A stretch of DNA of 63,793 bases, counting the filler, from Hausera hauseri (taxonomy: Eukaryota), in assembly GCA_046269625.1 (NCBI GenBank). It is 11 parts of 11 records of this genome, joined end to end, with 100 filler letters (N's around TTAATTAATTAA, not from the genome) between each part and the next. Parts side by side here need not be neighbours in the genome. Positions count along the whole stretch, not along the records: positions 4,698 to 11,525 come from JBJURY010061551.1; positions 11,626 to 15,749 come from JBJURY010746876.1; 9 more parts are not named here. One strand, given 5' to 3'. This document shows positions 1 through 27,919 of the stretch, piece by piece. The notes below the pieces were generated by a model. The model was not told the origin of the DNA. It was given only the letters and a program-made list of their open reading frames with translations, and made no database searches. The position numbers were made by a program, and so were the translations under genes. Within the stretch, counting starts at the first letter, position 1; each line of letters opens with the position of its first letter.

Positions 1-1459
1 TTTTTGCTCGTTCGATTTCTGAATTCGTCATCTGTCCTATCACTATGGGAGATAACACGATGATGATTAGTAATAGGACATCCTTTATCTGGAGTTTACT
101 TGTTGAATCTATTTCGGTTACTTTATCACTAATGCTACATACCAATTCTTTCTCACCTTTTCTTAGTTCACTCTCCTTGGCAGCGGGCTTACATCTATTA
201 ACATGGACTTTCATTGAAGTATTATTTTTCTTCAAACAAATATTTGGTAAGCATACTTTTTCTACCTCATATGGTCCTTTATATGGTCTATCTAACTTAG
301 ATGTTTTACCCGTTTTAATTGCTGGTGAATACAGCGTTACTTGGTCACCTATTTTGATTTTAGGCTGTTTGGTCTTTTGATCGTAGTACTTTTTATATTT
401 TAATTTATAATCCTTCTGGTTATTGCCAATCATTTTATATGCTAATTGAAAGCGTTCCTGCATTAACTGCTTATAATCTTCTATTTCCATTAAATGTGAA
501 ATTGGTTTCACCGTAGAATCTAGATCGATTGGTAATCTCGCGTCCCGTAGATACATTAGGTAGAAGGGTGTCTCTTTAGTAGCTTCATAAACCGATGTAC
601 AATTTACAAAAACACATGCATTGATGTATTCTTCCCAATCGTCTTGTCTAGTATTTACCACCGTCTGTGACTTTCCTTTTAAGTCTCTAATTTATCTTTC
701 GACCATTCGTTTGTTCTCTGGATGTCCTAGTATGGACCGTAGCTTCAATATCCTTATTATGTCATATGTAGCTTGCATTACACTTCCCGTTAGGTTTTAT
801 GCTTGGTCGGTTAACAATATTCTGGAGCTCCATAATTAAACGCGAAATTTTCTACAAATTTCTCGGCGATTGTTTCTGCTTTCATGTCGATCATTGCTAG
901 AGTAACGACCCAAGGAGTAAATGGTCGATAAAAACTAGAATGTATTTGTTTCCGTTCCTTGTTAGTAGTAATGATCCTGTTATGTCTATTGCAGTAAACT
1001 CGAATGGAGGTGGCGGGTTGTCCCATACTTTGAGAGGAGCCTTAAATTTAGATCCAGTATTTTTCCGGGTGGAGCATAGTTGGCATCAATCGCACTATTT
1101 TTGGATGTCTTTCGTCATTGTTGGCCAAAATATTTCTGTTTTCCTTGCTGATTGGTGTCCGCCGAGTAGACCGTCGTGATATTGGATTGGCAAAACTGTT
1201 CTGTTCTTTTTAGGAATTACTAGAGCTGGTCCGTTCTGGTGAATATAGCATAAGAATCCTCCATTCTCTTTGTAGGCTTCACTAAAGCGAGCGTGATGGT
1301 GTGCTAATTTTTTATCAATTGGTATTGTTTTGTTCTGTATATATTTTCTAATGACTTTTATTTCCAGATCTTCATCTTTATTTGCCTTAATATTCTCCAC
1401 TGATCCATCCATGCTCCATACTGCTGCTGTTACTTTCTTTTTTACTTTCGGTTCCTCTG
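1..1459 (-). pseudogene. Integrase with in-frame C-terminal signal-peptide-like extension
   Basis: HDGLLGGH zinc-binding region, LDRPYKGPYEV (GPY/F), then in frame ...KLQIKDVLLLIIIVLSPIVIGQMTNSEIERAK to the contig end. Confidence 0.85.
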
Positions 1460-2440
1460 TCATTCTTGACAGATAATCTGCATTTGTATTTCGTGTTCCA
1501 GGCTTATACTGGAAGTTTGATGTTTAGGGCTGTAGTTAAGGGCCCACTGTAATAGTCGACTATTTCGGTTTTTATGTTGCTTTAGCCATTGTAACAGTTG
1601 ATGATCTGTATATACCAATAATGATTTATTTTCGCTAACGTAAGGAGAAAATACTTCTAGTGCAAATACTACCGCTAACAACTTCTTTTCAATTACTGCA
1701 TATTTCTTTTGCTGCTTGTTAAGGTTTCTTTAGGAATAAGCCACTGGATGTTCTTTTTCGTCATCGCCATTTTGTGATAAAACTTCTCCAACCCCACAAT
1801 CACTCGCATACGTTGCTAGTATAAATGGTTTAGTCATATCTGGATAGATTAGAATAGGAGCCGTTAATAATATATCTTTCAGGTATTTGAAAGCTTTTTG
1901 GCACTTACGTATCTATAATAATTTTTCTAGATCTTCTCGTAATAGTTTGTATACAGGTTTGACTATTTTAATAAAATCCTTTATAAATCTTCGGTAGTAA
2001 TTTGTCAGTCCTAGGAATTGACGTAATTCTCTAACCGTAGTTGGTTTTGGAAAGTGTTCGATTTTACCTAAGAGTTTGTCTTGAGGCTTTACACCATATC
2101 TGTCGACTCGATGTCCCAAGAAATCTACTTCAGCTTAAGCAAATTAACATTTGTTTGGGTTTATTTTCAAGCCCATTATCTCGCATCTATCGAAGTGATC
2201 TTGCAAATCTTTTAAATGCTGCTGAATGTTTGATGATGCGATTATTACATCGTCAACGTACACCATGGCATGTGATGCACCTAAAAGTAGTAACTCCGCT
2301 CTTCTTTGAAATGTTGGTGGGCCGTTTTTCCATCCAAATGGCATACTATTGAATTCCCATAATCCTTCGCCTATTGAGAACGCTGTCTTCGCTTTATCTT
2401 CTTCCCTTACTTCTACTTGCCAATAATCTTTTTGTTGTTC
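1460..2440 (-). pseudogene. pol: Reverse transcriptase / RNase H, disrupted
   Basis: YWQV..KTAF..GLWEFNSMPFG, YVDDVII, LRQFLGLTNYYRRFI, YTDHQ. Confidence 0.92.
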
Positions 2441-2545
2441 GTTTACAAATCTTAATTTCAGCATGCAATACCATCTTAATGTCTTCCTCGGTACCGAATG
2501 CTCCAATGTTTACTAACGTTGTTTCCCGTTTTCTTAATTTCTTCT

Positions 2546-3061
2546 TTAATTCCGTAGGTAACAAACGTTTCCCATAATTGTAGTTGTAGATCCTGTGTTT
2601 ATCAGTGCAGATATTGGATAACCGTTCACTTCGATGTCTATCTCCGGTCTTAATGCTGATTGTGGCTCGTTTTTCTCCGTCGTTTGATATGTAGGCTCGC
2701 GAATACGTGATATAGGATTCTCATCGTATCTTTGCTTCATTTGTAGTACTTGATACACGGGATACATTCCTACATCCTTTGCATATTGGGGAGCAGATGG
2801 ATTTCTCAGGATTTGTTCATCATAGACTAATCCGTGATATTCGTCTGCCGGGTTTAATTGTGGTAAATCAGTTACTAGTCTCCGCCTATATTTCTGTTTT
2901 CGCGGTTTCAATGCAAATCCTTTTATTCTTGTTACATATTTATTACTGGTTAGTTCAATGCGGAGGTCGTCATTATCATTGTCATTTTTTCCATTTATTG
3001 TGCGGTAGGGCGAGTCCTTTTCAATGTCTTTTTTTAAGTATTTTTTTCCACGCGGCATCAT
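2546..3061 (-). pseudogene. Post-TM linker and N-terminal half of aspartic protease
   Basis: RPEIDIEVNGYPISALINTGSTTTI (catalytic DTG mutated to NTG). The rest of PR and the RT N-terminus appear deleted near 2440. Confidence 0.8.
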
Positions 3062-3069
3062 GATTTGCG

Positions 3070-4597
3070 AAGAAACAACTAGCTACTGCCGGTACTACTG
3101 CTATTAGAATCTTCCATTAGCAGCAAACTGCCGCATTTATTCTATATGCATTACCAAGCGCGGTGAATACTGTTCGTAGGGCACTAATAATGAAGTATAT
3201 CGTTAGAAAACCTGATGCTGCTTGACCGAAGTATAAGAATTTTCCCCACATCTTTTCCATAACAATTCTTGTTACTTTCTTCAAATAATCTTTTCCCATG
3301 AAGTTTTCCCATTGTGGTAAACTTTCTCCGTCCCACATTATTCTTGTTAATTCCGTTATCACTTGTTGTCTATGTTGAAGAAACAACAACATGCGTCGAT
3401 AGTCTTTTAAATTTTGTTGGGTATAGATGCCTCCTTTGGTTATACCCCTAAGTGGTTCAAATTTCTGATTTCTTTGTAGATTTATTAGACTCAGCGTTTC
3501 TGACTTTGCCACTTCTTCTCTTTTTGGCATGCTAGTCCATTTTTTATCGTATAGCTTGAACATGGGTGACATGTTGAATGTACAATTGTCCTATTGAGTT
3601 GGCTTTGCGTTGGGTTCTAACAGTATTCTTGTTACTGGCATTATGTACCTCAGTTCTGTGTGATAGACCACTGGTGATTCGGAGTTACATTATTTAGTGG
3701 GTCTTATCATGAATTCTACATTTTTACATTCAATGGTGATTAATATTTTGCCCGTTACTCTTACAATTACTCCGTCACCGAACGGCATTACTGTTGTTAC
3801 CATATCTGGATTCGTTATTACTAAGGCCATTTTGTTACGTATGATTTCGTAATTCAGCTTACACTCGTTCATTATTATATTTCTGTACAAGCTTCTTATC
3901 TTTTTTCTAACGTAATTAATTAAATAGTCAATCTTTTTGTCGAAATATTACGTTAGTTTTACATCGTTTTTATCTATCTTTATCTTTGCTGCAGGTATCT
4001 CCTTTGGTGATAGAAAGATACCCTTATAATTAGTACTAGATATTTCTTCGTTGCATCTACTTATCGTTCCTGTGATTTTAAATCTTATTATTTCTTCTGG
4101 ATTCTCCGAATACACGATTGTGGCCACTTTTGTCATCTTAACTTCCTTCGTTCATTCTTTATACATTGCTGTTTCCTTTTCAGCCGTTTTATCCACTGTC
4201 TTATTAAATTTTCCTTCTTTCAACAACGTCAAATTACACCGATTTGTCGATGATTCTCATGTCATTTTTATTCTCCAGTATCGCATTCACCGTTATCGTA
4301 TTAGTATTCACTCATTGTTGTCATTACCTTTGTTTGCGCATTAAACAGTGCTTCGTACTCCTTCAGTTGGACTTAATAATCTTCGGTTGCTACTGTTCTT
4401 GGGGCAATAACACCTTCAGCATCGTAATTTACTCCAACACAAGTACCTTCCATGGTTTTATCAATTCTTTCTGCCCTAAAAATTTGGGTGTATTTTATTC
4501 TGTTCCAGACTGCGGGTATGTGTGCATGTTGAATAGTTATTATTCCTATCTTTAAAGCGTCCTGACATTCTGCTCGCGATATTATTATTGATTCAAA
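3070..4597 (-). pseudogene. env: Chuvirus (Jingchuvirales)-type glycoprotein / env, disrupted
   Basis: EGTCVGVNY, RCNEEISSTNY, LYRNIIMNECKLNYEIIRNKMAL, GVIVRVTGKILITIECKNV, GGIYTQQNL, WGKFLYFGQAASGFLTIYFII. Collinear with the contig 2 glycoprotein and with the chuvirus-like G motif series. Confidence 0.85.
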
Positions 4598-4697: not shown

Positions 4698-5591
4698 TAC
4701 TACATGATGCTTATCCCGAGCAGGGATGATTAGTTGGAGTTTCGGCTCCCTTTCATAAATTTTGGCTAATTCTGATGAGTACAGGCGATAGGTCAAGTTA
4801 TAAGTATGTCCGAATTTTGTTTCACAACATTGGGTAAGTTTTCCTGGTTCGAAATCGCAATTCGTGGTTTCTTTTGTTATTTGATCCTCTAAAGCAATCT
4901 GAACCCTTCCAGAATTCCGATGTGGTCTCCATATCTTAAATCCCACGCATGTGGAGTTAGGTGAATAATAGTGGAGCGTTATCGCTTGTAATAGTTTTAT
5001 ATTTTCTTGATCTTGATTTGCCTTGGCTGTTTGAAATTCGTAACTACTATACAATCTAGCTTGTGTCTTCGGAATATATAAGGCAATTAGCGATAATGCT
5101 AAAATTATTTGAACATAAGATATTGGCCTAGTAATTATAGAGGACGTCTTCGTTTTCTTTTTATCTTGATGCGAATTGGATCGTAGGTTGTAACGCTTTT
5201 CTGGCTTTATTTCTGTTTTAACAACTCTTTGAATAGATACTACCTCTTCCTTTCCATTTTTATTAATGTACACCGTAGTTGGTGTAGTTCGAATTACTTC
5301 ATAAGGTCCTCGTCCGGTGCGAGTGAGTTTTAATGATGTGCCTTTCTTTGCGACTGGGTAGTGTACATAGACCCAATTTCCCTTTTCCAGATCGTGAGGT
5401 TTAGCCTTTTTATCGTATTGTTTCTTAAACTGTTCTTGATACTCAAGAGTGAGCGTCTTAGCGATATCCCAACATTTTTGTAATCGTGTTTGTATGACTT
5501 CCGCGAAATTCGGCTCTAAATCTTCTGGATTTGCTTCATATGGAGTCATCCCTAAGTCCGTAGGCAAGATTGCTTCGCGTCCGTACATCAT
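4698..5591 (-). CDS. Integrase C-terminus fused to a signal peptide and Cys-containing domain (truncated by contig end)
   Basis: YGREAILP, GRGPYEV, RYNLRS, then VQIILALSLIALYIPKTQA followed by about 120 further open codons. Confidence 0.85.
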
Positions 5592-7729
5592 AAAAATGGT
5601 GTAAATCCTGTGGCAGGGTGCGGTGTAGTATTGATAGCGAATTGCGTTCCTTCCAAAAATTCATCCCAATCTTTCTGATCTTTCGCTACTACGGTTGATA
5701 AAACACGTACAACCGTTGCATTCATACGTTCGACCATCCCATTGCACTGAGGGTGATAAGCAGTAGTGGTTAATCGTTCGATTTCGAAGATTTTAGAGAT
5801 TTTATCGAATAATTCGCTTGTAAAGTTCCTTCCCCTATCCGTCAATATTTGATCAGGTGGTCCATATCTGCAGATGATTTTTCTTACTACTGCATCAGCT
5901 AAAGTTTCCGCTTTCTGATCGATTAGTGCGATCAACTCCACAAAGTGTGTTAAACGATCTACGCATGTCAATATATATTTATTGTTTTTATGAGTCGTGG
6001 GCAGGGGTCCTACTATATCCATAGACATAGCCTGCATAGGTCTATCCGGTACGCCGATTGGTTTCAATTCTGCTATATAATTCTTTACTTTTCTTTGTTT
6101 TGTTGCGCAGACTTCGCAAGCGTCTACCCAATTTTTTACATCGATATAAACGCTTGGCCAGTAGTACTTATTCAATATTCTTTCCAACGTCTTCTTCCAG
6201 GACATATGTCCGGCTAAATGCGAGTCGTGTTCAGCCATTAATACTTCTGTTCGCAATCCTTTTGGGATAACTACCAATTTTCGTCCCTTTCGTTCATAGT
6301 ACAGAATATTATCTGGATTTGATGCATGATATTTGTGTCCGTGTCTTTGTAGGTGTTTCTTTAGCTGACGTCCTTTTGGTATCTCGTCTTGCTCGGCAAA
6401 TTTAATTATTTGTTGAATAACCTTATCCTTAGCTTGTTCTGAAGCAATTCTGATCGTCTTATTTAGTGTTAGAGTCTGCTGTCGCTCGACTAATTCTTCT
6501 AGCTCTGCTTTCTTCATGGTCGTAATTGTACTTGTTTTTGTTTTTAGTCTTGATAAAGCATCGGCGTCCACATGTTTACTTCCGGGTTTATATTGAAATT
6601 CGATATTGTATCGAGAGATTTCTTCGATCCACCGGTTTAATCTACACGTCGGGTTATTGGCCCGTCCCTTTAGCGTCGTGACAGCCTTATGATCGGTAAC
6701 TATAATAATTTTCTGTCCGTAGACGTAGACATTAAAATGTCTCAAGGCTTCTTTTACGGCTAGTGTCTCTAGCTCGGTGACTGAATAATTCTTCTCAGCT
6801 TTCTTAAGCGATCGTCCTCCGTATGCAATTGGATGTTCCAATTCTTCATCTTCTCTTTTCTGTGCCAATTCATAACCAATCCCTTCTTTACTTGCGTCTG
6901 TTTTGATTATAAATGGTAAGTTAAAATCAGGGTATCTTAATACTGGTTCGCTTGTTAAAATTTTCTTCATTTCGTCGAACGCTTTCTGTTCGACGTCGGT
7001 CCATTTCCATTTGATGCCCTTTTTTAATAGCCGATATAATGGCGCGTTTATTTTCGAATTATCTGGCACATAAGTGGCATAATATCCGCATAAGCCTAAC
7101 CAATGTCTCAATTCTTTTTGATTTTGTGGTTCCATACAATCTGATATTTTGTTTAATAGAGATTTATCTGGTTTCGATCCTCCTTCTCCGACTATATGTC
7201 CGAGATAAGATACTGCATTTTGTGCCCATTTACATTTCTTGGGGTTCAATTTCAATCCGGCCTGTTCTAATCGCATGAGGGTATCTTCGATGTCCTTTAA
7301 GTGTTCGTTTTCTGTTTTCGATGCTATCATCACATCGTCTAAATATGCGAACGCATGATCAAGTCCCATTAACATTTTATTCATCATTCTGGTGAAAATG
7401 GCTGGTCCGGTTGTTATACCAAATGGCATGACGTTAAATTCGTATACCCCGTCGTGTGTTTTAAAAGCTGTTGTATAACGATCATCTTCTTCAATTTTCA
7501 CTTGCCAATATCCGGATTGTAAATCCAGTGTGGTAAACCATTTTGCTCCTGATAGTCTGTCTAGGGCTTCTTTTACTGACGGTAGTGGAAACGAGTCTTT
7601 CATCATAAGCGTGTTTAGGGCTCTGTAATCTATACAGAATCTGTGTTTTGTGGTACCCTTTTTCTTGAACATGAGTATTGGCGAGTACCAAGATCGGTAG
7701 CTTGGTCGTATTATGTCAGCCTTTAACAT
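5588..7729 (-). CDS. pol: Pol segment: RT, RNase H, integrase core (713 aa open)
   Basis: RFCIDYRALN, LDLQSGYWQV, YLDDVM; TDAS/ELE/TDH RNase H; H-x5-H..CEVC zinc finger; MDIVGP, TDRGRNF, GMVERMN (DDE). Confidence 0.97.
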   Translation of the reverse strand: MLKADIIRPSYRSWYSPILMFKKKGTTKHRFCIDYRALNTLMMKDSFPLPSVKEALDRLSGAKWFTTLDLQSGYWQVKIEEDDRYTTAFKTHDGVYEFNVMPFGITTGPAIFTRMMNKMLMGLDHAFAYLDDVMIASKTENEHLKDIEDTLMRLEQAGLKLNPKKCKWAQNAVSYLGHIVGEGGSKPDKSLLNKISDCMEPQNQKELRHWLGLCGYYATYVPDNSKINAPLYRLLKKGIKWKWTDVEQKAFDEMKKILTSEPVLRYPDFNLPFIIKTDASKEGIGYELAQKREDEELEHPIAYGGRSLKKAEKNYSVTELETLAVKEALRHFNVYVYGQKIIIVTDHKAVTTLKGRANNPTCRLNRWIEEISRYNIEFQYKPGSKHVDADALSRLKTKTSTITTMKKAELEELVERQQTLTLNKTIRIASEQAKDKVIQQIIKFAEQDEIPKGRQLKKHLQRHGHKYHASNPDNILYYERKGRKLVVIPKGLRTEVLMAEHDSHLAGHMSWKKTLERILNKYYWPSVYIDVKNWVDACEVCATKQRKVKNYIAELKPIGVPDRPMQAMSMDIVGPLPTTHKNNKYILTCVDRLTHFVELIALIDQKAETLADAVVRKIICRYGPPDQILTDRGRNFTSELFDKISKIFEIERLTTTAYHPQCNGMVERMNATVVRVLSTVVAKDQKDWDEFLEGTQFAINTTPHPATGFTPFL

Positions 7730-8206
7730 ACGTTCAACCTCTTTGGTTACTTCCGGCCCTAGTGAATGCGGTGGTGGATATCATTTAGGCATCTTCTGCT
7801 CTTCCAAATCAATTTCATCATTGGAGCCAGGTTTCTTTTTTAATGGAATCGTTAATCTTAAGGTTTTCGCTCTGCCTATATCTTCTTCATTTTGTGCAAT
7901 GATTGACTTATATTTGCATAGTAATTTTTAAAATTGACAATATGCTTTTGGTGAAAATTTAGTTTTAACATGAGGTGGGAATTCGGCATTTTTATATAGT
8001 TTTTCTTTAATTGTTATTGCTGAAACCTTATAAGTATGACCCAATGTAGTATTAGCATACAGCTTTGCAGGCGTTAGTGCATTATTTACTAATCTGATTG
8101 GTACTCTTCCTGTCGTTACTCTCGTCGAAATGTTGCTAAGTATGATATTTGGATTTACATCATCTTGTGGCTCAAAATATACTGGTTGGTCATCTTCTTC
8201 GCGGAT

Positions 8207-8683
8207 TTAAGCATAAATTAACATTTCGGTTCTGGGTGGAATATTTTCGTCAAAGGGGATATATTCTCCCTGTTTCCTTTCTTTCATTGTCTTAATACTT
8301 TTTATTGGTCCAATTTCAAGTAGTTTTTTCGTCTGTAAATTTATTGCGATATTAGGTAATCGTTTCAGTATATCACATCCTAATACTACGTCGTCGGTAA
8401 GCTGGTCCATTATGGCGAAGTCGTGTCGAAGGATTTGGCCCATTAATTGGACTAGAGGACTCCATTTAAACTTTGGTTTGAATTCTTGACCGAAGGCTTC
8501 TATGCTGCCTGGGTCTGATGATGATGCTGGCTGCAGTTGCTTTCGTAGTGTCGGCGGTATTGATTCTAATTTTATAAACGACTTCTCTGATCCGGTGTCT
8601 ATTAAGGCATAGACTTCCCAATTTTCTATAGTAACTTTTGTAAAGGGTCTTCCTTCCATGACTGTCCCATAACAACTCGACAC
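8207..8683 (-). CDS. Retropepsin aspartic protease domain
   Basis: RPFTKVTIENWEVYALIDTGSEKSFI ... DVVLGCDIL. Confidence 0.9.
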   Translation of the reverse strand: MSSCYGTVMEGRPFTKVTIENWEVYALIDTGSEKSFIKLESIPPTLRKQLQPASSSDPGSIEAFGQEFKPKFKWSPLVQLMGQILRHDFAIMDQLTDDVVLGCDILKRLPNIAINLQTKKLLEIGPIKSIKTMKERKQGEYIPFDENIPPRTEMLIYA

Positions 8684-9329
8684 GTCCTTTGGTATTTAAT
8701 CGAAGAAATCTTATGTCCGTTTATCGTTATCTCTGGTGATGAAATAATATTTTCGGTCAGCTGTTTCAGTTCTTCGTTAGGGTATAAATCGTTAACTGCC
8801 ATGCTATTTGCATTACTTCTGATTAATGGTTCTTGTACTATCGGATTTTGGAACGATTTCACTCCTTGAGTTCCCCAGACTGTTGATCTGGTTTCTATAT
8901 TGCGAGCTATTCTCGGTGAGTACAATATCCTATGGTCATCTTCTGCTCGTCTTTGATTAGTGATCTGCATTTTCTTTAATACTCCGTATTGTTTTGTTCC
9001 TTCATAAGGACCTTTATAGCTAAAAGGTTTCTGACAGAATGCCGATCTATATGACATCATAGATGTTCTGTCGCAATCTTCGTATATTGGAGCCGTTGAC
9101 GGCATGATGGGCAAAGATGCCTTGATTACTGAATACATTTTGTGTCTATTTGGTCCGAGAATTACTTCTCCTTCCTTAGGCTCATCATCATTTGAATTAT
9201 TTATTCGCGTCATTGGTTTCTTAACCTTGGGTTTTAGTCGAAATATGGGCCTTGCTCGTCGTTTGTAATTATAATAGCCGACATGGCGTTCAAAGTCATT
9301 TTTCCATCGATTATTTTCATACGCTTTAA

Positions 9330-11150
9330 GCATTTTACCGAACGGTGTGATGATTGCGGTTAAGATCTTGCAGGAAAATCCTGTTAGCGTGAATGTTTCA
9401 TACCCGTTTATAACTGCTTGGATTACCGCTTTTACTAGTTGTGCCAAAAAATAGATGGCTAAAAATCCAGATGCGGCTTGTCCAAAAATTAAAAATCTTC
9501 CTTATATTTTGTAGAGTATTTCGGTGGTTACTCGTTGGTAATGGTTTGCACCAAGCAAGCATTCCCATTTAGCCTGATATTGGGTATCGTCTACTACTGA
9601 TGCCATGGCTCGGTTTAATTCCTGTGTTCGCTGTCGTGGAAAAGCAAGAAATTGTCGAAAAACTTCGATCTCTTTTGGTCGATAAATGCCTTTTTGAGAC
9701 GTATCCTGGAACTTTTCGTCAGTAATTCCTTTTGCTAAATTAGTTCCAGTTAGTTTTTTAGGGATAATAGTTACACCTCCGTTGGGTAAGCTGACCCAAT
9801 CCGTTTCGCTACGCCTAAACATCGGTTCGCCCAAACTTGCTTTACAATCTTTTAAAATCGTGGGTTGGGTTGCATTATCGAGCAACACTCTAGTGAGGGG
9901 CATGGCTAGACGTGGAGCATTCTGGTAGATTACAGGGAGCTCTTGTTTAAATCGTTTTTCTTCAACATTAATTGGTACATCTCTTTTCTCGCATTCATAT
10001 GTCAGTAAAACTTCTCCAGTAACCCGGCCAAAAATTCCTTCTTTCATGGAAATAATCGGTGAGGCTAACTCCGAATTCGCATAAATAAGAGCTATTTTTG
10101 TTCTCATAATTTCCGTATCTAATTTGCAGTCATTAGTTATCATTTTGTGGTACAGTTCGGCTATTCCGACTTGTCCTTTATAGTAAAAATAATCATCTCG
10201 GTTTTTCAGATAATCCTCGATTCTAATATTTTGCTTTTCTAAATTATATGTTTTCGCGTTTATCTCCGTTTCTGCGACGAAGAGCGCTTCGTAGTTAGTG
10301 TTAAAAATTGCCATTTCACATCGTGAAATCACTTCCCTTTTTATGAATTTCAATCCATGCTGATCAGAGATTAATATCGTAGGTGTATGATGCTCTGATA
10401 CATCTTCACGTGCTCTTGAACCGATGTCGAATTTGTTTACGTATCGTTTTCCGGTAGTTTCATTAAATTTCAATTCCTTAATCGTAATAAAACTACAATC
10501 CTTTTCGGTGGGTGGCTCCCATATGACGACAGAGCTTCTGAAGACACAAGTTCCGTTTTGCATATGACAATTTTGATTCTCAGTATATAACTTAGTGACG
10601 CTATGGAACATTACTTTTTGAACTCGAATTTCCGATTTGTAAAAGTGTACTACCACTACGTTTGCTTCCAGTCCTTTTCCGGTATCGTATTCCGTTCCAC
10701 TACAGTGCCCGTTATGCATATTCAGTCTTCCGGCTACTATCTTATACTCTCTGATTATTTTTCCAGGTTGCATTTCTAATTCAATGTTATCCCATTTCAG
10801 TTTTCAGGTTTCTTTGGCTTGTTTGCAATGTTGTCTTTCCAAATTCATTGGAATTGGAGCGGTTGTTGGTTTAATTATCGAGGAGTGTCCGTGCATTAAC
10901 CCACAGTGAAAAATACTACGAGATCGTCTCAACATACATTCCATGTCATCCAAAGATATCAGCTCTTGTTGTTGGTATAGGAAATAACTCTTCTCCTTTG
11001 TTCCCAATTTATGGAGTCTGGCATTCTCACATGCTTCTAAATCCATTAATGAATATTTTTGTCCTAGCTTAATCTAACGCAATCGTAGACGGTGACAGCA
11101 CCCATCTGTTTTATTAACATCATTATGGTAAGCAAACTGATTAACCAATT
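9330..11150 (-). pseudogene. env: Chuvirus-type (class III-like) fusion glycoprotein with internal signal peptide and C-terminal TM
   Basis: WLISLLTIMMLIKQMGA|VTVYDC, SLMDLEAC, FHCGLMHGHSS, GHCSGTEY, LYHKMITNDCKL, GIFGRVTGEVLLTYEC, QELPV, PLTRVL, KGIYRPKE, FLIFGQAASGFLAIYFL. ORFs 11064-11255, 10804-11046, 9502-10773 and the start of 8626-9447. Confidence 0.88.
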
Positions 11151-11642
11151 TGATTCGTTCTTCCGGTTGTTGTTATTTGTTGTCGTCAGGTTCCGTATGA
11201 TATCTCCGAGTCCGTTGTTATTTCTGGTTCTTTTATCCTCTTCCCTATTAAACAATTTCGGCCAATTTACTTCGCATGGAAGCTTCCTAGCTGCTTTTCA
11301 TGCCAAGCTCGTAGCTTGGTTTAGTTCATTTTCTCAAATTGGATTTGTCTTAATCGCCAAGTACAATAATGCTTTCCTTAGCTCTTCTATTGTATTTTCC
11401 ACCATAATTTTTTCAACTATTGCGTCGTCAGTTAGGCTACTTTTCGACAGTTTGAAACGTGAACTCCTCATTTTTCTAGCTGCGTTAAATATCGTCTTTT
11501 CCTTATCATCTAGTGTATCTCCACGNNNNNNNNNNNNNNNNNNNNNNNNNNNNNNNNNNNNNNNNNNNNTTAATTAATTAANNNNNNNNNNNNNNNNNNN
11601 NNNNNNNNNNNNNNNNNNNNNNNNNAACGAGATGGCCGCACA

Positions 11643-12008
11643 TTAAGAATACCGTATCCACTTTTTTTGTTTACATAGTACACACAAAAACTGACAGTCT
11701 CGTACTTTGTCCATTATTTGCTCTTTCAAGTTCTTTAATTCACAGCGTACTTTTTCAACAGTATTATAGTAATTTGTATCATACAATCGGTAAATGTACA
11801 TTTGATTTAACACAATAATTAGATTTTCTATAGAGCTGCAATCGGTTGCTGTCATCAATGCTATTGACGCTAAAGCTTCTTTAAATCCAAAATCACCTGC
11901 TGCTCTCGCAACCAAATCACTATAAAGTACTTGCCACCATCGTACCAAGTCTGAAATTGATAATCCATCAAAATTTTGCAATTGCTTTAATTGATTAACT
12001 ATTTCCAT
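11643..12008 (-). CDS. Hypothetical protein, probably Polinton accessory
   Basis: 121-aa ATG-initiated ORF ending in CQFLCVLC. No motif recognised. Confidence 0.4.
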   Translation of the reverse strand: MEIVNQLKQLQNFDGLSISDLVRWWQVLYSDLVARAAGDFGFKEALASIALMTATDCSSIENLIIVLNQMYIYRLYDTNYYNTVEKVRCELKNLKEQIMDKVRDCQFLCVLCKQKKWIRYS

Positions 12009-12136
12009 GATGATTATTATTATTACTATAACCTGCCCGTATTTATAGTTTTGAATAATTCAACTGAACAATACGGCTAAACATGTCACAAACCTTATTT
12101 ACAGAAAGAAAGAAAGAAACAGAGAAATACATTTAT

Positions 12137-12397
12137 TTATTTGCATGAAATACAGTTAATACAAAGCCGTAGACATTTTTTGTAAGCACAATGCTGTCCA
12201 TAATCACGATACCGACATCTAATATTGTCAGTTACTATCGCCAGCGAGCTATTCGATGTTGAATACGCCGTAATTCGTAACTCGGGAAAGTGTGAATGTA
12301 GTTGTATAAACTTTTGTCCGTCAATTGAATCTTTAATGTAAAATATTGTATTTTCAATGCCAAAACGATCACAAATCTCTTCCATAATACACGCCAC
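12137..12397 (-). CDS. Hypothetical Cys-rich small protein, probably Polinton accessory
   Basis: 86-aa ORF with C-terminal Cys/His cluster (CRY..HCAYKKCLRLCINC). Confidence 0.35.
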   Translation of the reverse strand: MACIMEEICDRFGIENTIFYIKDSIDGQKFIQLHSHFPELRITAYSTSNSSLAIVTDNIRCRYRDYGQHCAYKKCLRLCINCISCK

Positions 12398-12454
12398 ACA
12401 AAACGTTGAACTGCCATTATACCAATGGAGTCCATGAGGATGTCAAAAGAGAAA

Positions 12455-12866
12455 TGTCACCAACGTTATTGTCATTGACGATTTAATTCAGTAAGCCGCG
12501 AAACAATCAAAGTTCAACAACCTGTTCACGACGATTGCACGACACCGTGGTGTGACGGTCATTTTCATTACGCAAAACATGTTCCATCAGGACGGACAAC
12601 ATCGAACAAGAAATCTAAACGTACACTATTTGGTGTTGTACAAAATTCCTGGTGATCAGACTATCATTGATTATGTTGCAAGACAAGCATTTCCTCACAA
12701 CCGAGCCTACTTGATATATGCATATCACGATGCTACGAACAAACCGCATGGATATCTGTTTATTGACTTTACACAACAGTGTCCCGATTACATGCGAGTA
12801 CGCACAGACATTTTCAATCAGAAAGGTGAACATGTCTATAAACAAATTCGAAAATTGACGATATGA
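12455..12866 (+). pseudogene. Polinton A32/FtsK-like packaging ATPase, C-terminal half
   Basis: VIVIDDL (Walker B), FTTIARHRGVTVIFITQN, NVHYLVLYK, KPHGYLFIDF. The Walker A half is missing. Confidence 0.88.
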
Positions 12867-13085
12867 TTGTGATAAAATGACGAATTTCCGAAAAACAGTT
12901 GTTAAACAAACCTATCAAGCGGGTGTGCGGCAAGAAGCGTGTATCAAAGCGAACCGCTACAGTCAAGCGATTAATCAATTCTGTGCTTTGAACAACAGCA
13001 GCAGCAGCACCTAGACGCAAATTACCGTCACAGTGGCAACGGTTATAAACAACTACGTCTCAGCATCAATACGTCCACAGAAAAC

Positions 13086-13420
13086 ATGCGATTCAAACGT
13101 AGTCAGCCGTACTTTATTTCTTTGGTCAAGGCACCTACGAGACATAAGCGAAACATGCTGCGATCATTCCCGCAATTTGTAGTATACGATTTGATGGAAA
13201 TTTTATGCAGTATTGTTGTGGGTCACGTTGACATTGGTAGTGGAAAGCGAAATTTACTAAAGTGTAGAAAACGACTCATTGGCCTTGCCATCGCCTGTCG
13301 TAAATGACTGAAACTAGAGGTCATGTACCAGCAAGATTGTGGATTCCTTGGTGCAATTTTACCGATTTTCACGTCGTTACTGGGTGGTCTCATCGGTACT
13401 GCAGCAGCATAATATAAACA
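13086..13420 (+). pseudogene. Small basic Polinton protein with C-terminal GGFLG-type amphipathic segment
   Basis: ORF 13086-13307 continues past a TGA as ...YQQDCGFLGAILPIFTSLLGGL, the pattern of the small gene next to the ATPase in Polintons. Confidence 0.6.
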
Positions 13421-13549
13421 ATGACGGTAAGTATATGATGATTGGGCGATATGGGTGCACGGTTTTTATCATTTTGCCCCAGTTTGCCGAATTTTTCATT
13501 TACGTTTCGTTCTAATTGCTGTAATTCTAACAAAAACGACATCATCGAC

Positions 13550-14561
13550 GACCACGATTGGTGACGTGTGGTTCGAACCGCATTATCCAGTCGAGTATAC
13601 TGGCGTCGACAAACTGGCAAAGACTTACAAACAGGCTCAGCAACAGAACCTATGTTGGCTCGGAAAACAGTTAGCATACAGCCTAAACAAACCGAAGAAG
13701 GCTGCCGGTGTAAATAACGTATGGCAAATGGATCTAATGGAAATGATTCCGTACACCAGCATCAACGATCGGTATCGGTACGTGCTGACATGTATTGATG
13801 TGTTTAGTCGTTTTTCACGTGCAATTGCTGTGAAATCTAAATCCGGTAAAGATATTCCCGACGCTGTTCAGACACTGATACAATAACAACAACAGCCGAA
13901 GCATTTACAAACGGATTTTGGTAAGGAATTCTACAACGCCTACGTTGCAGCAGTCTTGAAACGGTTCGGCGTAAACCACTACTCCGTGTTTTCCCAATAC
14001 AAGGCTGCACTCGTTGAACGATTTAATCGAACGTTGCGCGGTCTCGTAAACAAATTCTTTAGGAAACAAGGCAACGAACGCTGGATATATGTACTACCTG
14101 ATATTATTCATGCATACAAGCATTTGACACATCGTGGTATCAATGGATTACGGCCAGTTGACGTAATCGATGATTTGAACATGTGGCTTTATCAAAGCCG
14201 AACATAACGACAGGCAGTTAAACGCCAAAAATATAAAATCGGTGCTTACATACGTATTTCGAAAATAAGTACGACGCCTTTTATTAAGAATTTTAATCAG
14301 AACTGGAGCGACGAGGTTTTCCGCATTTAGGCAATCAACACAAAACAAACACCTGTCATGTATGTTTTAGAGGACGAAAACTGTGAGGAAATATGCGGTA
14401 AATTCGACGAACAGGAAATGCAGGTTCTGCCCAAGAAATCCGAGGTATATAGTATTGAGGAAATTCTACATTCACGTGGCAAAGGTTCGAATAAACAATA
14501 TCTCATCAAGTGGCACGGATACACTACACCGAGTTGGATTTTTACATCGCAGATTGAGTGA
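13550..14561 (+). pseudogene. Polinton rve integrase with C-terminal chromodomain
   Basis: WQMDLMEM, YVLTCIDVFSR, LQTDFGKEFYN, LVERFNRTL; YSIEEILHSRGKGSNKQYLIKWHGY. Confidence 0.93.
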
Positions 14562-15617
14562 TGAGCATTTATTTGATACTTGATAGTAACAGATTATAAG
14601 AACATGATAACAACAATAACAATACCGCTGAACTGTTTACCATGGCCTTGTATCAGCCAGGAAGCCAGGGAAGTGGCTTTGGCGGAATTCCCGTTCACAT
14701 TTTTACCAATAATAATACGTGAGAACAGTGGAATATACTATACCCTAGTAAGACAATTTCCTGCATCTAGTCGTTTGCAGTTAGTCCGAGACTCTAATGA
14801 AACATTTCACGTTCGCAATTACCAACCGCAATATTTCCCGGTTTATATTTTCTATTTAAACAATCGATTGGTGCTAAAACACAAACATCCGATTGAATTG
14901 CAATTTAAATCACTGGCCGATGCTCAGGTATGGGTTTTTCAATCATCAGCCAATGTGCGCTCGAAAGGTCTACAGCTCGGTGGACGGAGTATAATTAGTG
15001 AAAAATTAAACTTTTCCACTGCGAAAACCACCGATATTACAGTGAACTGGCAAAAGACTGAATCATTCTTTTAATCTCATACAACAGGAATTGGTTTTTT
15101 TACGGAAACGGAAACAGAATTGTGTGCAACCATCAAGGCAGTAGATTAATTGGCTCTCAAAACATTTGAGTTAAACTCTAATGATCGTATTTCGTTTACA
15201 TTACATGATAATGTTACATATTTTGCTTTTTATAAAGTATTGGCACGGTATCTGTGTTTTAAGAAACAAGAATTCGGTCAAACCGGCGGCGGCGGACGGT
15301 CCATTGTTTCTAAACATAAACCACGTCTCTACGAAGCATTTCATCTAATCAATATTTTAACGGATCTAACCGAACCCGTATATGTTGGCGGAGACAATAA
15401 ACAACTGTTGGCTTCTTTTGGACTGGATTCGGACACGTACAAAACACCGGACGAAACTGCTCATAAAAATATCATCCGGCCCATGTATTTATCGTTGTCT
15501 TACAATGTTGTACACAGTATTTCCGTGCATATAGTAGACGAATTTTGGAAATCCATCAAATTTCTGTTCGGAGCCAAGACACATTTGGTGCTACATTTTC
15601 GTCGTCGTAGTCGATAA
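14561..15617 (+). pseudogene. Minor capsid (penton-like) protein, copy 1
   Basis: MSIYLILDSN..., EVALAEF, ILTDLTEPVYVGGDNKQLL, PMYLSL..VVHSISVHIVDEF..IKF..THLVLHFRR. Confidence 0.8.
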
Positions 15618-15659
15618 TAAACAAACTGCGTCATCACCATTATCATCATCATCGAGATC

Positions 15660-15749
15660 ATGAGTATTTACGTGGTGTTGCCGAGCAACAGTTGTCCGAC
15701 GACTCGTCCGAACAATTCAGCCAGTGAATACGTTGTAGATTGGAACAAT
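15660..15749 (+). CDS. Minor capsid (penton-like) protein, copy 2, N-terminus only
   Basis: MSIYVVLPSNSCPTTRPNNSASEYVVDW, a typical penton LPSNS..PxN start. Runs off the contig. Confidence 0.78.
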
Positions 15750-16065
15750 NNNNNNNNNNNNNNNNNNNNNNNNNNNNNNNNNNNNNNNNNNNNTTAATTA
15801 ATTAANNNNNNNNNNNNNNNNNNNNNNNNNNNNNNNNNNNNNNNNNNNNTTCATAGTAACATATGTACAGACTGTAATCAGTAATATACATACTATTCTG
15901 CCAACGAAAAATCATGGTAACATTTTGTTTCGCGTGACATTTACGTTATTTTTAAGAACTACTGTACGTATGCATGCTTCATGTTTTTAAAATGAAACTT
16001 AAATATTCTCCACGATTTCTGATTTCGAAATTTTTGTAACATTTTGGTCAGAGAAGGGTTTATTG

Positions 16066-16127
16066 TTTTTTCATTGTTCGCTCAAACTTTTGCTATAGTT
16101 TTGCATCGCTCCTTAAGAGTTACTGGA
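16066..16127 (+). repeat. ~62-bp imperfect direct repeat, second copy at 19650-19711
   Basis: TTTTTTCATTGTTYGCTCAAASTTTTGCTATAGTTTTGCA..GCT.CTTAA.AGT.ACTGGA at both sites. Confidence 0.85.
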
Positions 16128-16189
16128 GTCCCACTAAGTTTAAAATGAACTGTAAATATTTACTGTAAATTTTTAATGAAACAGTTAAT

Positions 16190-19100
16190 CTTAACCCGAC
16201 CCGAGAACTTAGAAAAAACTTTGCAGTTAGCTCAAGACCTATAAATGGCAATAGATAGATATGTCAGACAAAATGATAGGAACGACAACCATGGTAGGGA
16301 TAATAGACGAGTTAATAATAACAGAAATCAGAATGATAATAATGACTATAGAAATAACCGCTATAATAACAGAAATTTTGGCAATGACGGAAATGCGAAT
16401 AATTTAGCTAATAAGTCAAATTTTAGCACAGATAGAAATCAAGATAGTTATAGAAGCTTAAATAATGGAAACCTGCATAATGATAGTCGACAAAATGGGG
16501 ATAATAGACAAGGTCCGTCGAGTGAGAATAATAGAAATATGAGCGGGTTAAAGTCACCTGTAAATGAAGACGGTTGACATAGAGTCGGCAGAAATGACAA
16601 TTTAATTTGCTATGCATGCGGTAAGGAAGGACACATTGCAAGATCATGTCCAAATCTACTTAGCGTCGCATTCGTCGAGACTCACAAAGCTAGTATAATT
16701 AAGACTAACGAAAATTTGGAAGCGATTTATGGCACTCGAGGTGACACAAGTATGTTTATTGAAATGCAAGATTTACGGAGACATATGAAGAATCAAGGCG
16801 AGACTAATAAACTAGAAGTTTTAAAAGTTTAAAAAAAATATGAAAATAAACTATGATTAATGGAAATGTACCATGTGCTTACAGAGCCACAAACAGATTA
16901 CGAATATACTACATCACCAAAATGAACAGATATAGCACGGGAAAAGTATATTCCAGCAATAAAAAACAACCCGGATAAACCGGATGAACCGAAGACGTCA
17001 ACTGAAGTAGACTTGGATGCAGAATCCGAATATACGGTGGAAAAGGTAAACAAAAACCCGGAAGTGGATACAGACGAAAAGGAACTTATGGAACCTCTAA
17101 TACTCAATATAACGAAATATAGAGGACGGAGTCCCTCAATTAAACCAAAATGCAGAAATCGTTCACGATCTCCAATGACTAAGGAAAAAATAGAGAAAAT
17201 AAGAGGGACGGAAATCTCTGCAAAATGCGACGTAGAATTTAGTCTAAATACACCAGAACTCGGTTCGAATACACCTGTTGGAATAGAAGAATTAGCGAAA
17301 CCAGTAAATGAAATAAACGACATATGCCCACTATCTACTAATAAAGAGAAAACAGAACAAACCGAGAAGTTCGATCAGAAAAAGTGGAAGTTCAGGAAAT
17401 CGTGGAAAAACGCCAATGAACTAAGGAAAATGAGAATTCGCTGTCACGATCCAGGTGTATTACAGCAAAACCTAGAAAAACTTAAGCAGATCGCCGAACA
17501 AATAGATATATCCGGTAAAGAACAACAGTTTGCCGAAGAACTGTATAAAAGTTTGAAATTATGCAGCGAAGAGAAACTCGACGAAGCAATTGACTTAGAA
17601 TACCCTGAAGAAATACCTATAAAAGTATTAGCAAATTGCAAACATGGATTACAGTCATGGGTAAAAAGTGGGGTTGAATTTTCAGAAACACGGAGTAAAA
17701 AAGAGGACAGTGTCGATGTTAAAGCGAATAAAGCATAATTTAGAGCAAGCGATGGAAGGAATTAGGTCTGCAATGATTAATCGACTTAAGGAGAAACCGG
17801 TTAATGAACGGAATAAAAACCTCACCTAAACAATGCAAGAATATAGAAACTCGCATTAAAACCGGAAACGAAAATCAATCACAAGTTTAAAATTTAAGAA
17901 ACCGCATTATGTTTGTAATCAACAGATCATGAGTTTTATAAAAGGCCCAGACGACGAATTAAAAGATGCTTATAAAACACTAGACAACTAAAGCAATGGT
18001 CCGAATTAATATTGAAACTGAGTCAGGTAGTGAAAAGTTACATAAAAGAATTCTTAAAGAGTGAACTTATAGTGAAGTAACAATTGGGAGAAATTTCACG
18101 AAATTGAGATACAGTGAGAGCGGGGGTAGATATCCGGAAGCAAATTAATACACTACAACAACTAAAAATTATGGATAAGAACAAAGAGATGGTGTTAATG
18201 AACGAAATATATAAAATGATTGAAGGAACAGATTTTCAGACAAGACAAAACATGACTTGTGACCTCTATCCGAAATTAAGGAATGTTCATTTAGAAGGAG
18301 TCCAACAATTAGCCGCAAAACCCGTAAACGAAATTGCAATTCAAGAAGTAAAACTATTAGACATCTGCCCCGATAATGAACTGACAATAGAAGAAGCACT
18401 GAAATTTCTACAGGACCTTCATGAATGTGTCCCAGGGTCAGATCAAAAATGGCATACTGAATCAATAGAGATAATGGAAGATTACCGATTTACTTTCGGG
18501 GAAACTAGTTTCATAAAGAAATTAATTGAAGAAATCGATCCGGACTCCAAAATTTTAAAACATATGAGTAGATTAACGTCATTGTTAGTAGAAATAGTGG
18601 AAATCAACGATGAAAAAATGAGACAATTGCAAAGTTGGATACATCAAACTCAGAAACCCCAATTCGTACTGACCAAAGAGAAGCAGAAATAGACGAACTA
18701 ACTAGAGAATTTAACGCATACATAAATAAATCCGCTCTTATCGAATCGGAAATAGCCAAAAAAGCAGAATTCGTACAAAGATGGCAGCGAGATGTAACCT
18801 CCTACTTAACTCATTAACCACAAAAAAGACTTATTCAGGCAGACAAACTTTGTCAGTTGCTAACTTTGTTGCATCAAGTTTCCGGCAATTGACTCTGTTT
18901 TCGGATGAAACAAATGGTCAAAATGCAACAAAAATTACGCGAAGTAAGAGAAAGGGTACAAAATGCGAATGTAATCCAATAATCCGGGATCCCTATTGAC
19001 TATGGGCTTCTAGAAAATAGGCCCAGAATTCTATGCGTATTTCGATGTAACAGTTGCCGAAAATCAGAAAACCCCAGTACATCTGTATGAAACAGAAATG

Positions 19101-19633
19101 TACCCACAGAATTGGAAATTCAATGTGGAGATGCTTCTGAATTCAGCGCTAATTGAAAAGGATTTAATTGAACTAATTAACGTAAATATAACTGAAAATA
19201 GGTTAAGACAACTTATTCCTACTCTAACTAGCGATAACACAATTTATATCTCTGTGCCAAAACTTCTTATAAAAATACGCTAAAATCTTAAAGACTAAAC
19301 CTGAGGTGATGCTAAAAGTGAAGGTGTCATTTGAATGAATGAATGAAAAAGAATGCGAGTTTACAACGCATACCTCTGTGGGGACGTAAGGCAGTGGTTA
19401 ATAAAGAACGGTGGTGGAAACTTACTAAACTATAAACTTTATTTTAGAGACAGTGTATTTGACGAATTAGAATAACGAATAGACGTTGGGATTATCCCAG
19501 ATGAAACAAATCGAATAGTGGCAATAGTCACTAATGAACAGACTAAAGAAGAAGCCATGAGAAAGGCTAAAACTGGCCTATGTGTAGGACAAATCGTGAG
19601 AGTCGGATGCGCTGCAATGGAACCGAAATGTGG
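16190..19633 (+). pseudogene. gag: Gypsy gag C-terminus (N-rich tract, CCHC knuckle) followed by about 3 kb of unknown charged domain X
   Basis: CYACGKEGHIARSC at 16608-16649. Collinear with 31859-33340 (-) and 37790-39523 (+). No protease follows the knuckle. Confidence 0.85.
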
Positions 19634-19783
19634 TTTTTGTTATTTCATATTTTTTCATTGTTTGCTCAAAGTTTTGCTATAGTTTTGCACTGCTTCTTAA
19701 TAGTGACTGGATAAAATTTAGTTAGATAAGAGAATAGGGAGAAAATGGCGGTTCAGGCCCACCCCGGGGGATTGATAAATCGA

Positions 19784-20100
19784 TTTTGCACATGTGCCGA
19801 TCGATAGTGCATACTGTGCACTATCGATCCATAAAGTGCCTAGCAATGGTGCCGCTAGGCACCGTTGCTAAGGGCACTTTTGTACTTTACACTTATCGAT
19901 CGCTGCACAGTTCACTATTGATCGAATTGATCGGACAAAGTGCTAGTCGATAGAGCACATCAAGGTGCATAGATTGGTGCACAGTGCAAGTGTGCAGCAC
20001 ATGTACAAGTGTGCAAAAATTATTAATATTGGATTTTCGAGATTTTTAAAATCGATCATTAGGGTTCGGGACCGGATGCAATCGGTAGTGCACTTGATGT
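19784..20100. repeat. Cluster of inverted repeats / hairpins
   Basis: Perfect 13-bp stem GATCGATAGTGCA/TGCACTATCGATC (19799-19829) and a nested ~21-bp stem at 19833-19880. Confidence 0.8.
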
Positions 20101-20253
20101 TGTATATGAATGTGCAGTTAGAATTTAAATCGATTGATTGGTTTTCGAATAATNNNNNNNNNNNNNNNNNNNNNNNNNNNNNNNNNNNNNNNNNNNNTTA
20201 ATTAATTAANNNNNNNNNNNNNNNNNNNNNNNNNNNNNNNNNNNNNNNNNNNN

Positions 20254-20375
20254 GGTCGAACGCCTTCTCCAAGTCCACAAAACACATGTAGACTGGTTGA
20301 GCGAACTCCCATGCACCCTCCAGGACCCTGGTGAGGGTGTAGAGCTGGTCCGCTGTTCCACGACCAGGACGAAAA
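20254..20375 (-). mobile_element. RTE-clade (Expander/Rex3-like) LINE RT fragment
   Basis: Translates as FRPGRGTADQLYTLTRVLEGAWEFAQPVYMCFVDLEKAFD. Confidence 0.88.
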
Positions 20376-20891
20376 ACTGGAGGTTATGAATATAACCAAT
20401 GTTCCCTGAGGGAAGGGAACGAGGTACAACACATGAGTATGGGGATTGCGCCCTCGCGAGACCAACCTGAAGAAGTTTCTTTCAACACGCCTGTCAAGGC
20501 CAATGAGATTGCTGCCCGCATCTACAGGAGGCTCCGCCCTCCTGTATAAAATATGCGGCGCAGTCTCATTTCCTCAATCTTTTTGCACTTCACCTCGCTT
20601 AACCTGATAACAGATCTCACGTAGCTGACTTAACTGTCCGACTGGAGGTGAGCTTGCTCCCTGCCCAGGGCGTCACTACAAGCTGAGATTCTGTCTCTCT
20701 GCTGGTTTAGCCTGCTAACCTGCAACGATTTTCTGCTCTCTGGTCTTCTGGCTCGTTTAGCTTGCTAACTTGCAGAAGCCACTCTCACCCCTGTTTAGCT
20801 TGCTAACGCGGGAAGGAATTTTAATAGCAGAACAACTCTTCGCCTGTTTAGCTTGCTAACTGGCAAAAACAACCACTCTTCCTGTATCCTA

Positions 20892-25782: not shown

Positions 25783-25843
25783 GGTATCTACTGTTGCCGG
25801 ACTAATTGGCTCTCTGCATATGCATATCGGGGCGTGATTGTAG

Positions 25844-25946
25844 ATCCCCATACTCATGTGTTGTACCGAGTGTACTGACCAAAAGGGAACTGGAGGTTAG
25901 GAATATAACCAATGTTCCCTGAGGGAAGGGAACGAGGTACAACACA
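25844..25946 (+). repeat. DIRS internal complementary region / terminal repeats
   Basis: 25844-25867 is the exact reverse complement of 20423-20446. 25888-25946 is a 59-bp direct repeat (1 mismatch) of 20375-20433. Confidence 0.9.
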
Positions 25947-26277
25947 GGNNNNNNNNNNNNNNNNNNNNNNNNNNNNNNNNNNNNNNNNNNNNTTAATTAA
26001 TTAANNNNNNNNNNNNNNNNNNNNNNNNNNNNNNNNNNNNNNNNNNNNTGGTTAGGGGAATGCCTGATCAAGATTACAATAGTAAAGGTGACTCCTCAGA
26101 CCATCAAGCAAGTGATACAAACTAACGAGTCGAGATAAACGAGACATGTTGTAATCTGACAATGAAAGAAACTAATACTTATATCTAAATTTAAAGAAGA
26201 CTTTGAAGTGAAATGACATATGACAACCAAATAATATATTTTAAATTAACAAAGAGTTGTTCAAAACAGAAAACGCT

Positions 26278-26620: not shown

Positions 26621-26711
26621 CAGTGGAGCTAAACGTAAAACGTGATATATGCGTAATAATAATAATGAATTACTTAATGGTATTAAGAAAAAGAGAGACA
26701 TTCGATTTTAT

Positions 26712-27912: not shown

Positions 27913-27919
27913 TTGTTTG

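Follow-up and report, generated by a model that had tools for sequence, protein, structure and literature searches.

Contig 2 of an 11-contig, 63,793-nucleotide stretch of the Hausera hauseri assembly GCA_046269625.1 (the window) carries on its minus strand what we read as a Ty3/gypsy retroelement with a viral-type envelope protein (Env), and several elements of comparable design have been described. Gypsy elements of GAG-ENV-POL order, termed 'ancient errantiviruses' and carrying an ENV of the HSV/gB type, occur in Nematoda, Bryozoa and Platyhelminthes (Chary and Hayashi, eLife 2026; PMC13524379). In the same survey 114 gypsy elements had a chuvirus-like glycoprotein and vertebrates yielded no intact elements of the invertebrate type, and its authors cite Sacco et al. 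2022 for a nematode metavirus with a captured RNA-virus glycoprotein and with ENV and POL in flipped order. In the planarian element Burro/GYPSM1 (Arkhipova and Yushenova 2019; PMC6431247), env lies in frame between Gag and protease and matches mononegavirus fusion glycoproteins; this giant element, 25-30 kb long and present in thousands of copies, encodes a polyprotein of ~4,900 amino acids with BIR, BCL2, MATH and dUTPase domains. Chuvirus-like glycoproteins are also carried by the Anakin mosquito elements, which are BEL/Pao long terminal repeat (LTR) elements (Dezordi et al. 2020; PMC7642597). Finally, small transmembrane (TM) proteins and DEDDy exonuclease open reading frames (ORFs) are described as gypsy cargo for the rotifer Vesta/Juno ORF3s (Rodriguez et al. 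2017; PMC5408684) and the Drosophila MDG1-group sORF2 (PMC11952523). Statements about these papers, here and below, refer to the portions of their text at hand.

[quoted passage not shown] Order, env type and in-frame position are already known, since Burro (PMC6431247) and the GAG-ENV-POL survey (PMC13524379) describe them. An earlier note on this DNA had taken the order to be new, a claim that these two papers refute, and its statement that in nematode env-bearing elements env follows pol is incorrect where those elements are gypsy (PMC13524379). Like the surveyed elements, the contig 2 family has a Ty3/gypsy Pol, a gB/chuvirus-like env between a signal peptide and a TM segment, env before pol, multiple copies and no need of a furin site; the ~750 nt between the env TM and the protease, on the same strand, lie within the 2 kb by which the survey defined an env upstream of pol. 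The survey also required intact ORFs in near-identical copies, a criterion of that study rather than a trait of the lineage, and the decayed contig 2 copy lacks them. We compared it with the surveyed elements by their description; that description, in the text at hand, uses none of the words 'polyprotein', 'frameshift' and 'fused' and mentions no membrane module after the integrase.

Burro was likewise compared by description. Accessory ORFs and cargo such as the ankyrin repeats of the relative P0027 and the ubiquitination-related RING ORF of contig 7 recall it, whereas BIR, BCL2, MATH and dUTPase are not seen in contig 2, where cargo upstream would fall past the contig end; nothing membrane-bound after the integrase figures in the account of Burro at hand (PMC6431247). 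With the Sacco nematode retroviruses, likened here by citation, the element shares the metavirus type, the captured RNA-virus glycoprotein and the flipped ENV/POL order, and unlike Anakin its Pol is Ty3/gypsy and not BEL/Pao. The contig 2 copy thus mainly adds another divergent family, probably from a new host group. The feature that is possibly new is a predicted second membrane protein after the integrase.

Organisation of the contig 2 copy

The contigs of the window are joined by separators of the form N44-TTAATTAATTAA-N44, and contig 2 occupies positions 4698-11525. Pfam searches and Kyte-Doolittle (KD) hydropathy place on its minus strand, in this order, a signal-peptide-like stretch, a class III glycoprotein, a TM segment, the protease, the RT, RNase H and the integrase. 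The features are as follows.

11145-11525, minus: end of an upstream frame, likely that of a Gag-side extension; 2 stops; cut by the contig end and unrecognisable as Gag
11088-11144, minus: internal signal-peptide-like stretch (KD 19-mer 1.82), then VTVYDC, the predicted mature N-terminus
9466-11087, minus: predicted glycoprotein ectodomain, class III gB/chuvirus-type (PF24664); 1 frame change and 2 stops
11073-10807, minus: PF24664 Monjiviricetes_fusion, piece 1 (E 2e-8; profile 37-117 of 653)
10803-9505, minus: PF24664 Monjiviricetes_fusion, piece 2 (E 4e-29; profile 141-509 of 653)
9501-9300, minus: PF24664 Monjiviricetes_fusion, piece 3 (E 4e-10; profile 543-607 of 653)
9409-9465, minus: putative env TM anchor (KD 2.01), aligning with the TM of the relative P0024
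8696-9408, minus: putative cytoplasmic tail and linker that continue the env frame (ORF 9501-8626); frame change at the end
8357-8656, minus: aspartic protease (PF00077, RVP, E 1.6e-6), DTG at 8599-8591
6608-7666, minus: RT (YLDD) and RNase H (PF00078, E 2e-38; PF17919; PF17917)
5200-6268, minus: integrase with H2C2, core and C-terminal part with GPY (PF17921, PF00665); frame change near 5600
5070-5126, minus: second signal-peptide-like stretch, in frame past the integrase (KD 1.82; open frame 5660-4698)
4698-5069, minus: 124 aa with 4 Cys and 2 N-glycosylation sequons, predicted to open a second luminal domain that the contig end truncates

The Pfam scan of the Pol domains spanned 8695-8210 and 7780-5591, with RT, RNase H, H2C2 and rve in the latter and the interval between them left out; within these spans no dUTPase match lies between protease and RT. 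The C-terminal side of the integrase was located by tblastn, residues 2264-2430 of P0024 matching 5636-5151. We assign the predicted Pol to Ty3/gypsy. Its order, PR-RT-RH-IN, is that of Ty3/gypsy (Metaviridae), its best match in the PDB is Ty3-G Gag-Pol (E 1e-109; 371 bits, versus 204 for 8r0s and 114 for an MLV-type entry), and all 120 Pol homologues among the matches listed are gypsy-type by Pfam. Contigs 1 and 2 group with P0024, P0025 and P0027 in an RT-RH tree of 117 rows (SH-like support 98; 4 of 120 proteins dropped for short RT-RH), and a tree of 43 hand-picked rows joins them to 13 others in a clade of 15 (SH-like 97). Both trees were built with FastTree and carry SH-like support, with no bootstrap, named reference elements or BEL/Pao reference. 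P0043 and P0118 have env before pol yet fall outside the clade, in agreement with the published view of this order as non-monophyletic. P0118 also carries a dUTPase between Gag and env in its gag-env-pol ORF.

The three PF24664 pieces form one frame split by stops, and profile and structural model together indicate a chuvirus-type class III (gB-like) glycoprotein. A HMMER profile built from three sequences retrieved 1413 representatives at E <=0.001, the top matches being retroelement polyproteins and the lower-ranked ones stand-alone proteins of 600-720 aa; over 596 aa the contig 2 env shares 27.5% identity with the P0024 env (E 2.5e-70). Within their first 60 aa, 64 of 78 stand-alone full-length G-like proteins contain the motif [AGTV][YF]DC, and in contig 2 the same motif type follows directly on the internal hydrophobic stretch, a context that recurs in P0024, L004, P0124, P0125 and P0133. 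For 10803-9505, AlphaFold returned a model with a pLDDT of 86.6 and a pTM of 0.63 from 120 sequences (pLDDT 29.8 with the three-sequence alignment), predicting a helical arm at the C-terminus besides a helix of 48 residues and a part rich in beta structure; 8 of 9 cysteine columns conserved in the family are kept in this segment. Foldseek searches with the model were led by mivirus and chu-like glycoproteins (E 4e-16 to 1e-12 for the best; 49 matches at E <=0.001) and, against the PDB, by herpes gB (best E 1.7e-3). All 33 matches of the 120-sequence env profile to PDB sequences were herpes gB (best E 9e-4), and a PDB search with the single env sequence gave none. An Atlas match to PF24664 (score 0.90) is weak by itself. 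Neither of the two ectodomain pieces examined has a furin-type R-x-K/R-R site. Word-based searches for env homologues yielded 0 of 1974 and 0 of 3157 candidates, blanks that we attribute to limited sensitivity because the HMMER profile gave 1413, and scans of viral contigs confirmed nothing. The Pfam order, the profile and structure matches to chuvirus G and gB, and the Ty3-G match agree with the earlier note, which had read contig 2 as a Ty3/Gypsy element with a chuvirus-type glycoprotein before the protease, the RT, RNase H and the integrase on the minus strand.

Copies, intact relatives and the reading frame

The contig 2 copy is dead, with 7 in-frame stops (11336, 11300, 10806, 9504, 8209, 7930 and 7783) and 3 frame changes (near 11075, 8695 and 5600). 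Its family is large and mostly old: 24,777 contigs from run X1 and 2,087 from run X2, which belong to two studies, align to contig 2, cover 30 of 30 bins and are mostly 85-95% alike. At least 99% likeness to contig 2 was reached by 1471 of the 24,777 X1 contigs, but these are short.

Two contigs of the window hold related copies.

170-4151, minus: contig 1, divergent family, env-PR-RT-RH-IN and a hydrophobic stretch past the integrase (KD 2.38)
39524-41100, plus: contig 8, copy related to that of contig 2 (66-76% of nucleotides identical) and comprising the C-terminal part of env, the TM, the linker and the protease

Pfam places PF24664 at 3590-3120, RVT at 2509-2147 and H2C2 at 1523-1098 on contig 1. 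Contig 8 retains only the final ~100 aa of the ectodomain, followed by TM and protease, and an abrupt junction near 39525 links this part to a region that shares 74-80% identity with contig 4. Contig 8 is an internal deletion or a recombinant, because this env part is fused to a contig 4-like, contig 7-linked region.

Beyond the window, the nearest intact relatives span 2,600-3,700 aa. P0024 (2871 aa) has Gag-env-PR-RT-RH-IN in one ORF, L004 (3703 aa) is one ORF from Gag to its end, and L005 (3426 aa) is one long ORF; the last two are the 2 of 80 metagenome loci fetched by Pol motifs that carry a contig 2-type env. Among 18 env-profile hits scanned, 10 have env ahead of protease and/or RT in one protein (P0122-P0126, P0128, P0130, P0133, P0135 and P0137). 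The relatives that give the same order thus include natural single-ORF gag-env-pol copies, P0024 and L004, of the intact kind that the earlier note had wanted sought; together with the RT clade of 15 rows they uphold its view that the arrangement is not a one-off insertion. Its claim of the same domain order in contig 1 holds as well, and that of env-PR in contig 8 holds for TM and protease, with the truncated ectodomain as a reservation. One polyprotein frame and gag-env-pol order, also proposed there, are found in the intact relatives, not in contig 2 with its stops, frame changes and lack of a recognisable gag.

A programmed frameshift could divide env from pol in the same element, yielding more Gag-Env than Pol. 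The change of frame near 8695, where linker gives way to protease, would fit, as would P0121, a protein close to P0024 in env that ends inside the protease at 1352 aa, by a contig end or a frame change. Set against this, translation of contigs 1 and 8 shows no change of frame from linker to protease, indels among the X1/X2 copies fall at the very place near 8695, and the ten relatives listed above read through from env into protease/RT, so that we hold a frameshift to be very unlikely. The 8695 shift looks like a lesion, because contig 8 is in one frame there and other copies show indels there, and from these observations together with the one-ORF relatives and contig 1 the ancestral state was most likely a single ORF.

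The end of the linker, 8740-8700 (SPEITINGHKISS), resembles the N-terminal strand of a protease directly ahead of the real one. Extra protease-like domains occur in several relatives, and this stretch may be a relic of a duplicate protease because relatives hold two or three such domains there. DEDDy-type exonuclease ORFs lie downstream of the polyprotein in L002-L005 (PF00929 match in 4 of 7 scanned). P0027 has ankyrin repeats and extra proteases after the integrase.

Several points weigh against our reading of contig 2. Its upstream frame has no Pfam match and none from the Gag ends of P0024 or L004; LTR, primer-binding site and target-site duplication (TSD) were seen neither on contig 2, both of whose ends are cut by the contig, nor in L003-L005. 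Identity to the nearest intact relatives reaches only 43-47% in Pol/RT and about 28-30% in env, and the two window copies sit on long branches (0.8), which FastTree can misplace. The Foldseek matches to the PDB miss E 0.001, with TM-scores near 0.3, signal peptides and TMs were called by hydropathy and motif only, and the host (below) is assigned from composition alone. Lastly, no listed X1/X2 contig spans env to RT. This last point, together with the broken state of the copy and the lack of a spanning read seen in either run, would also favour a chuvirus-like endogenous glycoprotein that chance or a nested insertion had placed upstream of an ordinary gypsy pol. We regard that as extremely improbable. 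Contigs 1 and 8 repeat the env-before-protease order, the closest env relatives are retroelement polyproteins and not viral G, and env relatives and RT relatives coincide. Within contig 2 there are no exact repeats of at least 14 nt, and shorter ones occur at chance level only, which argues that no LTR or TSD, the sign by which the earlier note would have known nested elements, separates env from protease. Nested insertion is already contradicted by P0024 and L004, because both hold gag-env-pol in one ORF.

Host and neighbouring contigs

The window also holds a DIRS-like contig and a retrovirus contig (TLV_coat, MLVIN_C), and no family member matches contig 8 over its first ~270 nt; these observations would suit an element from a vertebrate (fish-type) genome in the sample, that is, a vertebrate gag-env-pol gypsy element. 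We think this unlikely. Observed/expected CpG is 0.97-1.15 in contigs 1, 2, 4, 7 and 8 versus 0.74 in the DIRS contig and 0.59 in the retrovirus contig, though old copies in a methylated genome should lose CpG, and the dinucleotide profiles of the same five contigs cluster together, apart from contigs 5 and 9. The sample is probably mixed and the element host an invertebrate without repeat methylation, because CpG content sets the element contigs apart from the vertebrate-type ones. Our best guess, drawn from the known host range, is a flatworm or nematode parasite.

The remaining features of the window are these.

32785-33861, minus: contig 7, Gag with zinc knuckle (P0024 residues 20-339, tblastn E 9e-20; PF03732 weak; PF00098)
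35108-37390, minus: contig 7, ORF of 761 aa that lies upstream of gag and bears a RING finger (PF13639, E 1e-8) at its C-terminus
15850-20153: contig 4, Gag-side region without env or pol, in which long frames resemble coiled coils and a zinc knuckle is present
37491-37760: start of contig 8, ~270 nt of deviating composition; either a flank or the join of a chimera
20254-25948: contig 5, fairly intact element with a 59-nt repeat at both ends; GC 52%; no Pfam match
41534-54794: contig 9, piece of a vertebrate endogenous retrovirus with an env that is open over 592 aa (TLV_coat, E 7e-12) and an integrase (MLVIN_C)
11626-15749 and 26049-31758: contigs 3 and 6, presumably Polinton/adintovirus-like
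54895-63793: contigs 10 and 11, Tc1-like transposase and decayed gypsy pol fragments

The contig 7 Gag is tied to contig 2 only indirectly, by a blastn chain via contigs 4 and 8, and contig 8 is the sole link between gag and env in the window. The N-terminal piece of the 761-aa ORF (37153-36701) is similar to the DEDDy-type accessory ORFs of L001/L002 (E 5e-7), which makes an exonuclease-like and E3-ligase accessory protein probable. Direct repeats of 69 nt at 16059 and 19643 (86% alike) flank the Gag-side region of contig 4, possibly a non-autonomous gag-only derivative. We take contig 5 to be DIRS-like from gag-like, RT-RH and tyrosine-recombinase-like frames, a label that rests on sequence motifs and weak RT matches; contigs 3 and 6 are classed by the motifs of their frames (integrase, packaging-ATPase-like, capsid-like). 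A ubiquitin-like frame and a BEL/Pao-gag-like frame also occur on contig 6, and microsatellite and tandem repeats flank the contig 9 retrovirus.

The region beyond the integrase and a model of the polyprotein

The earlier note had set the element at 7700-11525; the frame continues past the integrase to the second hydrophobic stretch at 5126-5070, which that note did not mention. The predicted domain that follows (4698-5069) has no Pfam match, no Atlas match above 0.78 and no similarity to the modules of relatives. In the RT clade, 2 of 15 rows (P0122 and P0137) end before this module, and all 13 others, among them the near-identical P0024 and L001 and the two window copies, show hydrophobic segments there. 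The 10 modules measured open with a signal-like stretch, continue for 102-394 residues that hold 3-14 cysteines and 2-14 sequons, and close with a TM and a tail of 46-122 residues; in contigs 1 and 2 only the first hydrophobic stretch is visible, and in P0025, whose module is 35% identical to that of P0024, only the last TM exceeds the hydropathy cut-off. An in-frame hydrophobic stretch after the integrase was found in 5 of 5 clade loci versus 2 of 51 others (56 of 80 loci had a usable integrase-core match), and in 7 of 120 long Pol proteins, of which 3 are clade members. The module ectodomains are mostly unlike each other, with only L002/L003/P0027/L004 and P0024/P0025/L001 forming groups and no family match, so that the modules need not share an origin. 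In L052/L053 and the chromodomain-bearing P0033/P0037/P0038 the frame runs ~900-1100 aa past the integrase to a TM; these are perhaps pol-env fusions.

No description of a post-integrase membrane module was found in the literature searched; subscription papers, Repbase, GyDB and eLife figures lay beyond that search, and Sacco et al. 2022, the primary Burro paper or any of these resources may already hold one. Sacco et al. 2022 may likewise contain the processing model given below or C-terminal membrane segments. In Vesta, Juno and MDG1 the TM proteins are separate ORFs that replace env, whereas the module of the contig 2 clade is in frame with Pol and additional to a full class III env. The post-pol ORF of Cer1, considered as a parallel, was ruled out, as it encodes a nuclear export protein (PMC10309623, in the portion at hand).

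The intact relatives pose a puzzle, namely how Pol is packaged when signal peptidase would separate it from Gag, and what the predicted post-integrase protein does; P0024, L004, L005, P0124, P0125 and P0133 make it testable. The polyprotein is predicted to be cut by signal peptidase and by the element's own protease, as the earlier note had reasonably proposed. One transcript would yield one polyprotein, with Gag made in the cytosol; the internal signal peptide would start translocation of Env into the endoplasmic reticulum (ER), and cleavage before xxYDC, as in viral G, would free Gag. The Env TM would stop transfer, leaving protease-RT-RH-IN in the cytosol, hanging on the Env tail, and the second signal past the integrase would anchor the far end of Pol and open a second luminal domain with its own TM. 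Because signal-peptide cleavage would part Pol from Gag, Pol may reach the particle through the Env tail and not through Gag. Env trimers could bring protease domains together at the budding membrane, favouring protease dimers. Gag, Env and Pol would be produced one to one, and an enveloped particle would travel from cell to cell, likely from soma to germline.

It is possible, though we hold it only tentatively and think it doubtful, that in a distinct clade of gag-env-pol gypsy elements two envelope proteins arise from one polyprotein, a conserved class III fusogen ahead of the protease and a fast-changing, swappable type I membrane protein past the integrase. If so, the polyprotein would make four passes through the ER membrane and Pol would lie between two anchors, a design like that of RNA viruses and not known from retroelements. 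The second protein would then serve attachment, tropism or immune evasion, like gD or gH/gL beside herpes gB. Herpesvirus gB-type fusogens depend on partner glycoproteins, and a partner glycoprotein in these elements would inform how class III fusion machines were assembled.

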